Counted from the first letter of the stretch, positions 48,512-61,082 are shown. The stretch: DNA of 64,000 bases from Paraburkholderia sp. (GCF_035501035.1 NZ_DATJWR010000325.1:10841-74840); one strand, 5' to 3'. The notes: a model not told the origin generated them from the letters alone. Numbers and translations are program-made.

Positions 48512-49321
48512 CTATTTCGATGGCGCACCGGATCGCGCGGGGCGTACGACGCTTTCGAGTTGTTCGCGCACGAGCGCGACGAGCGCGGCGCCGCGCCCGC
48601 GCGGCATCTTCGAAGCCACCGTGACGATACCGATCGCCGCCGTCGCGAAGGAACCCATCGAAAAGCTGACACCCACCCCGCAGAGTCCTTGCGCGGCGAC
48701 CTGCGCGTAACCCAGCTCCCGCGTTTGCCGAACCCAGCGGCGCAAGCGGGCGTCGTCGAGATTGCGGTGACCGTACTCGGTCGCGTGGCGCGCGTAATGG
48801 GCGCTGATTTCTTCGTCGGGAAGTTCGGCAAGCAGCGCAATGCTGGGTATGCCCATGCCGAGCAGCCGCATGCGGTTCTTGTTTCTCGCGAACTCGCGCG
48901 CCGGCGTATCGCCTTCCTCGACGTGAAGGCAATGGCTGTAGTCGCCCGAGCGCACCACCAGAAATACGTGCTCGCCGGTTTGGCGCGCGAGCTGCTTCAT
49001 CAGCGGGTGGCACAGCTCCACGAGCGGGGGCGCCTGCATCGACGCCGTGCCCAACGCCATGCTCTCCACACCGAGGCAATAGAGCTTCGTCTCCTGATTG
49101 CGCGCCGCGAGGCCGGTATCGACCAACGCCGTGGCGATGCGGTAGGTCGTGGTTCGATCAAGCCCGGTCATGTCCGCCATCGTTTGCAGTGACACGCCGC
49201 TCACATGATGTCGCGCAAGTATTCGCAGCAATTGTGTCGCGCGCTCGATGCTCTGCGCGCCGCGCACGGCAGGCTCGCTGCGGGGGGCGCGGGGGCCGCG
49301 GGGACCATGAGAATTGGGCAT
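48512..49321 (-). CDS. IclR-family transcriptional regulator
   Basis: QSIERATQLL, GLDRTTTYRI, TGEHVFLVVRSG, VRQTRELGYA; divergent from the atu-like operon. Confidence 0.88.
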   Translation of the reverse strand: MPNSHGPRGPRAPRSEPAVRGAQSIERATQLLRILARHHVSGVSLQTMADMTGLDRTTTYRIATALVDTGLAARNQETKLYCLGVESMALGTASMQAPPLVELCHPLMKQLARQTGEHVFLVVRSGDYSHCLHVEEGDTPAREFARNKNRMRLLGMGIPSIALLAELPDEEISAHYARHATEYGHRNLDDARLRRWVRQTRELGYAQVAAQGLCGVGVSFSMGSFATAAIGIVTVASKMPRGRGAALVALVREQLESVVRPARSGAPSK

Positions 49322-49391
49322 GGCGGGTTCAGACTTTGCCAGGACGGCTGCGTTGCGGACGCTGGCGAGTATAGCAGTGGGTGAAAACGCT

Positions 49392-49410
49392 ACGTGCACA
49401 TTGTGAACAT
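49392..49410. promoter_or_regulatory. Imperfect 19-bp palindrome, candidate IclR operator
   Basis: ACGTGCACA-T-TGTGAACAT (7 of 9 arm positions pair) in the iclR/atuC divergent gap. Confidence 0.45.
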
Positions 49411-49498
49411 TCGTCGTGTTTGTCGTTGTGCATGCATCGAGTGTCATTTGCAATACGAGCAAGCAACCGGACCCACTGTGCAACGCACTTCCTGAAAT

Positions 49499-51112
49499 AT
49501 GGCCCCTTTCAAATCACGTATCCATGTCCTTTCAGAGGCATACCAGTCGCAGCGCGCGGGCATGCTGGCGCTGGTCGACCAGTTGCGCACGCTCGAGCAG
49601 CGGGCGGCCGACCTCTCCTCGCAGGCCGCGGCCGCTTTTGCGCGGCACGGCGCACTGTTGCCGCGCGAGCGCGTGAGCCGTCTGCTCGATCCGGGCCGTC
49701 CGTTCCTGCCGCTGTGCAATCTTGCCGGATACGGCATGGATGATCCGGACACCGAAGCATGTGTTCCGGGTGGCTCGCAGATTGCCGGCATCGGCTTCGT
49801 GAGCGGTGTGCGCTGCATGGTCGTGGCAACCGATTCGGGTATCGATGCCGGCGCGCTGACCGAGGCAGGGAACCAGAAGCTCATGCGCTGCCAGGAAATC
49901 GCCCTGCAGAACAAGCTGCCTTTCGTTCATCTGGTCGAGTCGGCTGGTTCGAACCTGCGCAAATACCGCGTGGAAAAGTTCATTCGCGGCGGCGGCATGT
50001 TCTACAACCTCGCGCGCCTCTCCGCCGCCGGGTTGCCGGTCATCACCGTGGTTCATGGCTCTTCGACGGCGGGCGGGGCCTACATGCCCGGGCTTTCCGA
50101 CTACGTCGTCATGGTGCGCGGCCGCGCGAAGGCGTTTCTCGCCGGGCCGCCGCTGCTGAAGGCGGCAACGGGCGAGATCGCGAGCGACGAGGCGCTTGGC
50201 GGCACGGACATGCACGCCACGGTGAGTGGCCTTGCCGAATACGTGGCCGAAGACGACGCGCACGCGATCGAAATCGCGCGCGATATCGTCGCGACGCTGC
50301 CGTGGGATCGCGAAGCGCCCGCTGCCGCCGTGCAGGCGCCCGCGTCCGATCCCGACGAACTGGCCGGGGTCATGGTGCTCGAGCATCGCAAGCCGGTGGA
50401 GATGCGGGAAATCATCGCGCGCCTCGTGGACGGTTCGCAATGGATGGACTTCAAGCCGGACTACGGTGCGGCGACCGTGTGCGGTCACGGCAAGATCGAA
50501 GGCCACACCGTGGGCTTCGTGACCAACAACGGTCCGATCGATCCGGCGGGCGCCACCAAGGCCGCGCAGTTCATCCAGTTGTGCAATCAGTCGGGCACGC
50601 CGATCGTGTTCCTGCAGAACACCACGGGTTTCATCGTCGGCCGCGCATCCGAAGAGGCCGGCATGATCAAGCACGGGTCCAAGCTGATCCAGGCGCTTTC
50701 GAATGCAGACGTGCCGCTCTTCACGATCTACTGTGGCGCTTCGTTCGGCGCGGGCAACTATGGCATGTGCGGGCGCGCCTTCGAACCGCGTTTCTGCTTC
50801 TCCTGGCCCAACGCGCGCACGGCGGTGATGGGCGGCGAGCAGGCGGCGACGACGCTCGAGATCGTCGCGCGGCAGCAGGCCGAGCGCAAAGGCAAGCCCC
50901 TCGACGAAGCGCGGCTCGCCGAGCAGAAGGCGGAGATCGTCGCGAACTTCGAGCGCCAGGCCAGCGCTTTCTACACCAGCGGTCACCTGCTCGACGATGG
51001 GGTGATCGATCCGCGCGAGACGCGAGCCGTACTTGCGTTCGTGCTGGCAACCACGCGCGAGGCGAAGCGGCGCGAGCCGAGGCGCGTGCAGTTCGGCGTC
51101 GCGCGCTTCTAA
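49499..51112 (+). CDS. atuC: Acyl-CoA carboxylase carboxyltransferase subunit (geranyl-CoA carboxylase beta-like)
   Basis: LLPRERVSRLLD, HGSSTAGGAYMPG, GPPLLKAATGE, GAGNYGMCGR, DDGVIDPRETR. Confidence 0.85.
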   Translation: MAPFKSRIHVLSEAYQSQRAGMLALVDQLRTLEQRAADLSSQAAAAFARHGALLPRERVSRLLDPGRPFLPLCNLAGYGMDDPDTEACVPGGSQIAGIGFVSGVRCMVVATDSGIDAGALTEAGNQKLMRCQEIALQNKLPFVHLVESAGSNLRKYRVEKFIRGGGMFYNLARLSAAGLPVITVVHGSSTAGGAYMPGLSDYVVMVRGRAKAFLAGPPLLKAATGEIASDEALGGTDMHATVSGLAEYVAEDDAHAIEIARDIVATLPWDREAPAAAVQAPASDPDELAGVMVLEHRKPVEMREIIARLVDGSQWMDFKPDYGAATVCGHGKIEGHTVGFVTNNGPIDPAGATKAAQFIQLCNQSGTPIVFLQNTTGFIVGRASEEAGMIKHGSKLIQALSNADVPLFTIYCGASFGAGNYGMCGRAFEPRFCFSWPNARTAVMGGEQAATTLEIVARQQAERKGKPLDEARLAEQKAEIVANFERQASAFYTSGHLLDDGVIDPRETRAVLAFVLATTREAKRREPRRVQFGVARF

Positions 51113-59909: not shown

Positions 59910-59954
59910 GCGTGTAAGCGGACAGCGTGGATGACAGATTTTCGTCCGCGCTTT

Positions 59955-59975
59955 CATGACAATTACTTTGTCATG
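59955..59975. promoter_or_regulatory. Perfect inverted repeat CATGACAA-N5-TTGTCATG upstream of the porin gene
   Basis: Read directly, about 30 bp before the porin ATG. Confidence 0.55.
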
Positions 59976-60005
59976 CTAATCAGTTTACATTTGGTGGCTG
60001 AGACT

Positions 60006-61082
60006 ATGAAGAAGATGAGAATCGCAATTGCACACCAGGCAGCGATCGTGGCGCTGCTCTCCGCATGCAGCGTTGCTCAGGCACAAAGCAGCGTTACGCT
60101 TTACGGCGCAGCCGATGCGGCACTCCTGTACACCAACCGGTCGCTCGGCGAGGATGGCGGGAATGCTGGCAAGCAGTTCTCGCTGGTCGACAGCGGCTGG
60201 AATTCCTCACGATTCGGCCTGCGCGGCTCGGAAGACCTTGGCGGCGGCGTGCACGCCAATTTCACGCTCGAAAGTGGAATCAGCGTGGCCAATGGCGGGC
60301 TGAACGACTCCAACGGCAACTTCTTTGGCCGCCAGGCGTGGATTTCGCTTGCGGGCAATTTCGGTGAGGTCAAAGCAGGTCTGCAGTATTCGCCGTTCCT
60401 CTATGCCGTCGAAGAGGCAGACCCGCGCGGATTCTCCGACTTCGGCAGCGGCGCGATCATCTATGTGGACAACGTCCTGGCAACGGGCTTGTTCAATTCG
60501 AACGCCGTGTCGTACACGACGCCGGAGTTGGCAGGGTTCACCGGTCAGGCCATGCTGGCGCTCGGCGGAACGCCGGGCGATTTCCAGGCTGGGCGCCAAT
60601 ATTCGATTGGCTTGAAGTACGAGCACGGTGGCCTCGCGATCAACGCGGCGCTGTACGACGGCAATAGCGGGGGCACGGCGTCCACGCCTGTTCCGTCCAC
60701 TATCGAGTTCATCGGACGCACGCTGGGCGCTTCGTACCACTTCGGGGCCGTCACTGCGAAAGCCTCGTTCACGAACTACAAGGTGGCCGGGAGCTTCAAT
60801 AGCAACGTGTTCGCAGGCGGCCTCCTCTACGCCGTGACGCCCGCATTCATATTGAACGGCGGCGTGTGGTTTACGAGCGATCGCAACGAGACCAGCAACA
60901 ATTCGGTATTGGGGGCGATCGGCGCGCAATACTATCTGTCGAAGGCGACGGCGGTCTATGCGCAGGCCGCGGTCGTCCACAACAACGGCCAGATGGACAC
61001 GGGTCTTGGCATCAACGGCGCACTGTATGGCGCAGAGGGTACGACCGTTGGCGCCGATGTCGGCCTGCGACACTTTTTCTAA
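60006..61082 (+). CDS. Gram-negative trimeric porin (Burkholderia Omp/Opc-like)
   Basis: Signal peptide, QSSVTLYG, SRFGLRGSEDLGGG, FGRQAWISL, YYLSKAT, terminal GLRHFF. Confidence 0.93.
   Translation: MKKMRIAIAHQAAIVALLSACSVAQAQSSVTLYGAADAALLYTNRSLGEDGGNAGKQFSLVDSGWNSSRFGLRGSEDLGGGVHANFTLESGISVANGGLNDSNGNFFGRQAWISLAGNFGEVKAGLQYSPFLYAVEEADPRGFSDFGSGAIIYVDNVLATGLFNSNAVSYTTPELAGFTGQAMLALGGTPGDFQAGRQYSIGLKYEHGGLAINAALYDGNSGGTASTPVPSTIEFIGRTLGASYHFGAVTAKASFTNYKVAGSFNSNVFAGGLLYAVTPAFILNGGVWFTSDRNETSNNSVLGAIGAQYYLSKATAVYAQAAVVHNNGQMDTGLGINGALYGAEGTTVGADVGLRHFF

Follow-up and report, generated by a model that had tools for sequence, protein, structure and literature searches.

To our knowledge, nearly all work on the Atu pathway has been done in Pseudomonas, where it is encoded by atuRABCDEFGH, and we know of no proven activity for one of its proteins, AtuA. 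Here we describe an operon of nine genes in a 64-kb stretch of Paraburkholderia sp. DNA (referred to below as the window; operon region 48512-61082) which carries homologues of AtuA, AtuC, AtuD, AtuE and AtuF (A, C, D, E and F below) together with an IclR regulator, a class III CoA-transferase, a major facilitator superfamily (MFS) transporter and a porin. What is new is a sister of the Atu pathway, common in Burkholderiales and with the chemistry expected of an Atu-type pathway, for which we propose acid entry, activation by CoA transfer and IclR control, and we consider it probable from the gene content and conservation described below that the operon serves to break down a carboxylic acid that enters in free form, has a 3-methyl branch and is larger than 3-methylcrotonate.

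Several described systems provide the background for this comparison. Atu-pathway carboxylases can be told apart from those of the Liu pathway by a rule from Jurado et al. 2015 (PMC4673880), according to which Gly at the selectivity site and no three-residue insertion indicate a geranyl-CoA carboxylase (GCC), and Phe plus the insertion a methylcrotonyl-CoA carboxylase (MCC). The citramalate lyase of Raoultella yields pyruvate and acetate directly from citramalate (bioRxiv 10.64898/2026.01.16.699985), and a DUF1446 gene had earlier been seen beside methylaspartate-pathway genes when the fate of citramalate was still unknown (PMC4682846). AtuA-like proteins are also found in the thn operon of anaerobic naphthalene degraders, where they have been predicted to act as a lyase on a tertiary alcohol (PMC6849830, PMC11659651).

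A protein search with the window AtuA, restricted to one genome per species, produced 80 loci which were scored by tblastn with the nine window proteins, and in 43 of these the C-D-E-F-A block was found to be constant. The 43 loci come from Paraburkholderia, Variovorax, Cupriavidus, Limnohabitans, Acidovorax, Comamonas, Achromobacter, Pseudorhodoferax, Bradyrhizobium and Xanthobacteraceae, plus one Pseudomonas (P. jinjuensis). Further carriers in the protein database are Cupriavidus necator, C. taiwanensis, Comamonas testosteroni, Alicycliphilus denitrificans and Ramlibacter tataouinensis, whose proteins are annotated merely as 'AtuA family' or 'DUF1446'. All nine genes are common to the two Paraburkholderia loci. 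An earlier note on this DNA, made from the sequence alone, had described the locus as a rearranged atu-like cluster and had proposed a gene-neighbourhood search for its architecture; with that search run and the architecture recurring in these 43 loci, the picture of a local rearrangement has to be given up for that of a widespread operon type, which C. necator and C. testosteroni also carry.

The window type is also distinct from the canonical one in sequence. We fetched 80 canonical atu loci for comparison and rebuilt the P. aeruginosa AtuC and LiuB sequences from PDB alignments. The canonical loci have the order A-(B)-C-D-E-F and none of the 80 includes a transferase, MFS or IclR gene. Between the window and canonical proteins the identities are 47% for A, 52% for C, 58% for D, 41% for E and 48% for F, compared with 57–86% (A), 67–91% (C) and 74–97% (D) within the window-type clade, where these values span beta-, alpha- and gamma-proteobacteria. 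Neighbour-joining (NJ) trees, constructed without bootstrap for the four proteins C, D, F and A, agree in placing the window type in a clade apart from canonical Atu of Pseudomonas and Marinobacter, which forms one clade of its own, so that none of the four proteins nests inside the canonical clade, and the tree of C leaves LiuB outside both AtuA-linked clades. The proteins thus do not group with canonical Atu, which the earlier note had named among the grounds for refuting its distinct route, and by these comparisons the operon type stands beside the Pseudomonas Atu pathway as a sister lineage and not as a one-off rearrangement.

It should be noted that the window-type clade in the NJ trees also takes in other AtuA-linked clusters of uncultured Burkholderiales. 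Among the loci L052-L079 (e.g. L058, L063-L065, L067, L072, L075, L076 and L079) we observed further AtuA-linked carboxylase clusters from uncultured Burkholderiales and a Congregibacter metagenome-assembled genome (MAG), which share 47–54% (AtuA) and 40–63% (C) identity with the window proteins and have different gene orders. As these match neither canonical Atu nor the window type, the partnership between AtuA and a carboxylase exceeds the two types. Separately, a Janthinobacterium assembly (L108) includes a canonical Pseudomonas-type atu locus with an AtuC 83% identical to that of P. aeruginosa, which could reflect horizontal transfer or contamination.

The genes that accompany the block carry our main argument. 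The open reading frames (ORFs) around the block in the 43 loci were clustered and representatives were compared with Pfam, with linkage defined as lying within 10 kb. A class III CoA-transferase orthologue is linked in 30 loci (no more than 1.5 kb from the block in 26 of these), and five loci without the transferase, three from Cupriavidus and two from Bradyrhizobium, have an ADP-forming acyl-CoA synthetase, such that an activating enzyme of one kind or the other is linked in 35/43 loci. Uptake varies similarly: a TctC/Bug carboxylate-binding protein is present in 23 loci and an MFS orthologue follows the block in four (two Paraburkholderia, P. jinjuensis and a Xanthobacteraceae MAG), giving a linked carboxylate uptake component in 27/43. 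Only the two Paraburkholderia loci have the porin in synteny; at that place P. jinjuensis encodes a porin of the OprD family, in a layout with a LysR gene divergent from transferase-C-D-E-F-A-MFS-OprD, and the pairing of MFS and porin is one lineage's (Paraburkholderia) solution. A core that stays constant while the parts for activation and uptake are exchanged argues that a free acid enters the pathway, and the replacement of the transferase by a synthetase in some genomes likewise argues for free-acid activation without telling which acid. The proposal that an acid enters in free form and is activated by CoA transfer is therefore supported by the co-conservation of the transferase, a carboxylate uptake component and IclR with C-D-E-F-A.

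Regulation is part of the same conserved unit. An IclR orthologue (38–81% identity) occupies the same position in 37/43 loci. The window regulator scores above the Pfam cut-offs for HTH_IclR and IclR_C, and its best NCBIfam match is BhcR at 89 bits, far under the cut-off; the longest ORF (to 49483) is over-extended, with the conserved start at 49321. Alignment of the upstream regions revealed a 15-mer, GTGCACATTGTGAAC in the window and GTGCAYATNRTGCAC as the family consensus, which in 35 loci with an IclR gene, from Paraburkholderia to Limnohabitans, stands 67–152 bp upstream of where C starts. It is the sole match in the 64 kb (chance expectation 0.07), and is missing from all 80 canonical Pseudomonas-type atu loci and from those window-type loci that have no IclR there. 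From this distribution we infer that IclR would bind the 15-mer. Just downstream of this candidate operator, TTG and TNCAAT columns are conserved across the aligned upstream regions, and the TTG–17 nt–TNCAAT arrangement is plausible as the operon promoter; a generic sigma-70 promoter and terminator scan did not call this promoter and returned nothing above chance. In Cupriavidus (L015, L048 and L074) the operator occurs a second time, in front of an operon with genes for an ADP-forming acyl-CoA synthetase, TctC, a short-chain dehydrogenase (SDR) and an acyl-CoA dehydrogenase (ACAD), which suggests a shared IclR regulon. We also observed the operator twice, about 1.5 kb apart and with IclR displaced, in Variovorax L005 (positions 1315 and 2820) and L008 (2426 and 4108), where we saw no convincing gene in the stretch that separates the two.

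Pfam and NCBIfam scans show that all nine genes are present and intact in the order of an IclR gene on the minus strand followed by C-D-E-F-AtuA-CoA-transferase-MFS-porin (Table 1), which agrees with the order, IclR control, CoA-transferase, MFS and porin noted earlier. The D/E, E/F and F/A junctions are ATGA overlaps. Such overlaps are a usual sign of translational coupling, and by these signs the gene set is complete, intact and translationally coupled. The biotinylation motif of F is AMKM with Lys641 as the biotinyl Lys. The best NCBIfam match of the MFS protein is TIGR00893 (D-galactonate-transporter, ACS subfamily) with 281 bits against a cut-off of 395, followed by HpaX with 274 bits and also below its cut-off. 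The absence of AtuB, AtuG and AtuH from the cluster was also correctly called, as tblastn with these proteins and AtuR from the canonical Pseudomonas locus L082 found no homologue in the 64 kb (best E 0.1–0.9).

Table 1. Features of the operon region, with positions counted from the first nucleotide of the window.
Feature	Position	Strand	Evidence
IclR regulator	48512-49321	-	HTH_IclR + IclR_C
Predicted IclR operator GTGCACATTGTGAAC (family consensus GTGCAYATNRTGCAC)	49394-49408	+	Upstream-region alignment
Putative operon promoter	49426-49454	+	-35 TTGTGC 49426-49431, 17-nt spacer, -10 TGCAAT 49449-49454
C, carboxyltransferase (beta) subunit, GCC-type	49499-51112	+	Carboxyl_trans 402 bits
C residues 154-166, basic stretch	49950-50000	+	Alignment
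D, acyl-CoA dehydrogenase, AtuD-like	51154-52317	+	Three ACAD Pfam domains
E, enoyl-CoA hydratase, AtuE-like	52314-53234	+	ECH_1
F, biotin carboxylase + BT + BCCP (alpha) subunit	53231-55267	+	Biotin_carb_N / CPSase_L_D2 / Biotin_carb_C / BT_MCC_alpha / Biotin_lipoyl
AtuA-family protein	55264-57081	+	PF07287 467 bits + PF23544 (AtuA_ferredoxin) 102 bits
Class III (CaiB/BaiF) CoA-transferase	57269-58495	+	CoA_transf_3 402 bits
MFS transporter, ACS-like	58572-59909	+	MFS_1
General outer-membrane porin	60006-61082	+	Porin_4 168 bits

The carboxyltransferase subunit C scores 605 bits against the P. aeruginosa GCC-beta protein (5ikl_B; 52% identity) and 480 bits, 125 lower, against MCC-beta (LiuB, 3u9r_B; 48% identity). 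Its Gly164 aligns with Gly162 of the P. aeruginosa GCC and Phe191 of MCC, and the PDR-type three-residue MCC insertion is absent; by this signature C is GCC-type and not MCC-type, and its predicted pocket should accept a substrate larger than 3-methylcrotonyl-CoA, which could be derived from a geranate- or citronellate-like acid. The motif beside the selectivity Gly is NLRKYRV[ED]KF[IV]RGGG in the window type and NL-NYAAEIFVEGAR in canonical Atu, a difference that is consistent between the clades, and window-type C proteins have five extra conserved basic residues around Gly164 (R154, K155, R157, K160 and R163) where the canonical GCC has N, a gap, A, I and E. The nearest solved structures to D are 2pg0 and the human long-chain acyl-CoA dehydrogenase (LCAD), and the second-best PDB match of E is the P. 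aeruginosa isohexenylglutaconyl-CoA hydratase AtuE (4zu2, 182 bits). Homologues of AtuA, AtuD and AtuE are clustered with the carboxylase, as in canonical Atu loci.

AtuA is a CmlA-like body fused to a CmlB-like ferredoxin-fold domain (PF07287 and PF23544). A phmmer search with the protein returned one weak PDB match, 9erq_A, which was deposited as 'AtuA family protein / citramalate lyase subunit A (cmlA)', and a profile of 26 AtuA sequences recovered the same chain at E 3.9e-8. An AlphaFold prediction made with database homologues (pLDDT 83.8, pTM 0.86) was compared by Foldseek, in which 9evf_A was the sole significant PDB match (E 1.9e-21, TM 0.76) and the C-terminal domain matched 9evf_B with a probability of 0.97 and TM 0.60 at an E-value of 0.02, which is weak. 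The C-terminal domain alone found no match in a PDB sequence search and its likeness to CmlB comes from the fold comparison only. The predicted model of AtuA thus looks like a CmlA–CmlB fusion. No second lyase-like family recurs in the 43 neighbourhoods, leaving AtuA as the sole recurrent lyase candidate. This, together with the CmlA homology seen by profile and predicted fold and the prediction made for the thn proteins, suggests by analogy, as the most coherent role for AtuA, that it would release acetate from the intermediate, once carboxylated and hydrated, by cutting at the free carboxymethyl arm. The operon context is thus informative about this protein, as had been anticipated, since the block offers no other lyase candidate and the AtuA model resembles a solved citramalate lyase. 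We note that 9evf was deposited as a 'citramalate lyase - ADP - pyruvate complex', which suggests that AtuA-family proteins may bind nucleotide.

In the pathway we propose, the porin and an MFS symporter would import the acid anion, and the class III CoA-transferase would form the acyl-CoA, with succinyl-CoA or acetyl-CoA as our guess for the donor. D would then introduce a 2,3 double bond, and the biotin enzyme of C and F would carboxylate the 3-methyl group (the gamma position) using ATP and bicarbonate. Hydration of the carboxylated product by E would give a 3-hydroxy-3-alkylglutaryl-CoA, from which AtuA would cleave the free carboxymethyl arm at the tertiary alcohol as acetate, leaving a 3-oxoacyl-CoA for ordinary beta-oxidation. 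IclR would sense the acid or its CoA ester. As substrate we envisage either an isoprenoid acid resembling geranate or citronellate or some other, possibly dicarboxylic, methyl-branched acid.

In the transferase, CoA_transf_3 covers the full length (model positions 1–366), and the catalytic Asp182 lies in PITDVVTG and is aligned with the conserved Asp of 4ed9. This is the nearest solved protein (336 bits), with the human succinate--hydroxymethylglutarate CoA-transferase (SUGCT) 9br6 at 311 bits and further PDB relatives including a formyl-CoA transferase and YfdE; no alpha-methylacyl-CoA racemase is among the PDB matches listed. The best NCBIfam match is the succinate--glutarate CoA-transferase NF052585 at 419 bits against a cut-off of 750, and the protein is below every equivalog cut-off and hence no SUGCT orthologue. 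This kinship keeps alive the possibility of a dicarboxylate substrate, or of a predicted handling of intermediates resembling 3-hydroxy-3-methylglutaryl-CoA (HMG-CoA).

Several points weigh against the catabolism of an imported free acid as we propose it. The nearest characterised relatives of the transferase use dicarboxylates, including 3-hydroxy-3-methylglutarate, and the enzyme could consequently act on a pathway intermediate and not at entry. Substrate and direction of the MFS protein cannot be read from its sequence and import is putative. Eight of the 43 loci have no linked activating enzyme within 10 kb and 16 have no linked transporter within that distance. The relation of AtuA to CmlA is distant (16% identity) and their substrates differ, which makes the lyase role an analogy. 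Finally, we found no study of this Burkholderiales operon type in the searchable literature.

A more specific idea, which we hold tentatively and think rather less likely than the general scheme, is that the enzyme of C and F represents a third functional class of gamma-carboxylating acyl-CoA carboxylase beside MCC and GCC, whose substrate would be an anionic 3-methyl-2-enoyl-CoA (e.g. with an omega-carboxyl) and not geranyl-CoA. This is hinted at by the clade-specific basic residues at the Gly, the SUGCT-like transferase and the linked TctC-type binding proteins. If true, the operon would encode a pathway, so far undescribed, by which Burkholderiales of soil and freshwater use methyl-branched acids that are dicarboxylic or derived from isoprenoids, and AtuA would be the acetate-releasing lyase of that pathway, possibly binding nucleotide.

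The operon might instead be the plain Burkholderiales equivalent of the Pseudomonas Atu pathway for citronellol and geraniol, with the alcohol and aldehyde dehydrogenases encoded elsewhere and geranate or citronellate as the true substrate. The five core functions are identical to atuCDEFA, C has the GCC Gly signature and its top score is to the P. aeruginosa GCC-beta, E is nearest to AtuE, and Cupriavidus, Variovorax, Achromobacter and Burkholderia isolates have been reported to grow on the acyclic monoterpene beta-myrcene (PMC10386936). However, the four core proteins placed in trees separate from canonical Atu (41–58% identity) as a clade of their own, and C, D and A keep about 57–97% identity within that clade across three proteobacterial classes. 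A Pseudomonas, P. jinjuensis, carries the window type complete with transferase, MFS and OprD, the regulator, operator, activation enzyme and transport all differ, and so consistently do the motifs adjoining the selectivity Gly. On this evidence we consider a plain Atu equivalent unlikely.

We are equally doubtful that the transferase works inside or after the branch-removal module and not at entry, where it might shift CoA from carboxyl to carboxyl within a 3-alkylglutaconyl or 3-hydroxy-3-alkylglutaryl intermediate, hand CoA over from an intermediate to the incoming acid, or return CoA to a beta-keto acid product set free by the pathway. In favour of this, the closest characterised relative is SUGCT and the intermediates of the pathway are analogues of HMG-CoA, class III enzymes include intramolecular transferases (PMC11659651), and CmlAB acts on a free acid. 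A Limnohabitans locus has a gene for a beta-keto acid cleavage enzyme (BKACE, PF05853; L017:13140-14063) directly after the CoA-transferase, which suggests that a free beta-keto acid may arise in or after the pathway there. In contrast, Bradyrhizobium and some Cupriavidus have the ADP-forming acyl-CoA synthetase instead, which activates free acids and is incapable of an intramolecular shift, and the window operon minus its transferase would be left with no activating enzyme for an apparently imported acid. A leucine/isovalerate Liu-type MCC cluster shares the ACAD, carboxylase and hydratase classes and a 48% identity between C and the P. aeruginosa LiuB, but can be rejected as very improbable because C has neither the MCC Phe nor the three-residue insertion and its MCC score is 125 bits under its GCC score, AtuA takes the place of HMG-CoA lyase, and LiuB falls outside both AtuA-linked clades.

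The start of the transferase is more likely the ATG at 57275 than the start of the ORF given in Table 1. The 187-bp gap between AtuA and the transferase includes a 19-codon ORF with a GGAGA ribosome-binding site (57116-57175), which is not conserved in L001 or L002 and is unsupported as a gene. In Variovorax and Achromobacter a TctC gene occupies the same position; we considered whether the gap might be the scar of a deleted TctC and rejected this, as it has no significant similarity to TctC. The neighbours of the operon, a MocR/GntR regulator, an aldo/keto reductase and a LysR gene, are unrelated to it, and the upstream DNA (43402-47418) encodes a CCG-domain (heterodisulfide-reductase-like) protein, a DUF3501 protein and the MocR-type GntR/aminotransferase regulator, which are apparently unrelated to the operon. 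Rfam and tRNA scans of the window returned no RNA family and no tRNA. A search of sequencing runs matched the window sequence only to wetland, peat and soil metagenome DNA, the source being an uncultured organism from a wetland metagenome, a look-up of the exact AtuA protein returned only one 2.6-kb metagenome contig, and by AtuA the closest genomes are those of Paraburkholderia hiiakae and Paraburkholderia sp. J76 (85–86% identity).

The operon represents a compact and self-contained version of the pathway, with entry, activation, branch removal and its own regulator, and is carried by tractable organisms such as C. necator and C. testosteroni. It offers a clean system for assigning the reaction of AtuA, given the related citramalate lyase structure, and would probe whether the Gly/Phe rule suffices to call a geranyl-CoA carboxylase. 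The conserved operator provides a ready handle for inducer screens, and such work could reveal methyl-branched acids eaten by soil and freshwater Burkholderiales and possibly a new carboxylase specificity.

Compared with known systems, the operon is nearest to atuRABCDEFGH of Pseudomonas, with which it shares an AtuC/F carboxylase having the Gly selectivity residue, AtuD, AtuE and AtuA, and the logic by which the beta-methyl branch would be removed as acetate. It differs in the order C-D-E-F-A, whereas the canonical order is A-B-C-D-E-F-G-H, in being without the AtuB and AtuG short-chain dehydrogenases and the AtuH acyl-CoA synthetase, in having an IclR regulator with its own predicted operator in place of a TetR-family AtuR divergent from atuA, and in the addition of a class III CoA-transferase and carboxylate uptake genes. 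The Liu pathway (P. aeruginosa LiuABCDE; PDB 3u9r) shares the carboxylase lineage, the gamma-carboxylation of a 3-methyl-2-enoyl-CoA expected here, and the ACAD and hydratase classes; in contrast to Liu, the window C has no equivalent of Phe191 and no three-residue insertion, and the cluster has AtuA with no HMG-CoA lyase (LiuE) domain among its nine genes. The SUGCT-type class III transferases share the full-length CoA_transf_3 fold, the catalytic Asp and a score of 311 bits to the human enzyme, but the window transferase is under the NCBIfam equivalog cut-off.

The body of AtuA has the predicted fold of CmlA from CmlAB of Raoultella planticola (9erq and 9evf) and its C-terminal domain resembles CmlB, and in both reactions a tertiary alcohol would give up acetate; AtuA is a fusion where CmlA and CmlB are two chains, and the CmlAB substrate is a free C5 acid whereas that proposed for AtuA is a CoA ester. 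Finally, the thn operon shares a CoA-transferase (ThnP), an ACAD (ThnO), a hydratase and an AtuA-like lyase predicted to act at a tertiary hydroxyl, but ThnP belongs to family I and transfers CoA intramolecularly, thn lacks a biotin carboxylase, the AtuA-like protein is split over two genes, and the substrate is alicyclic.

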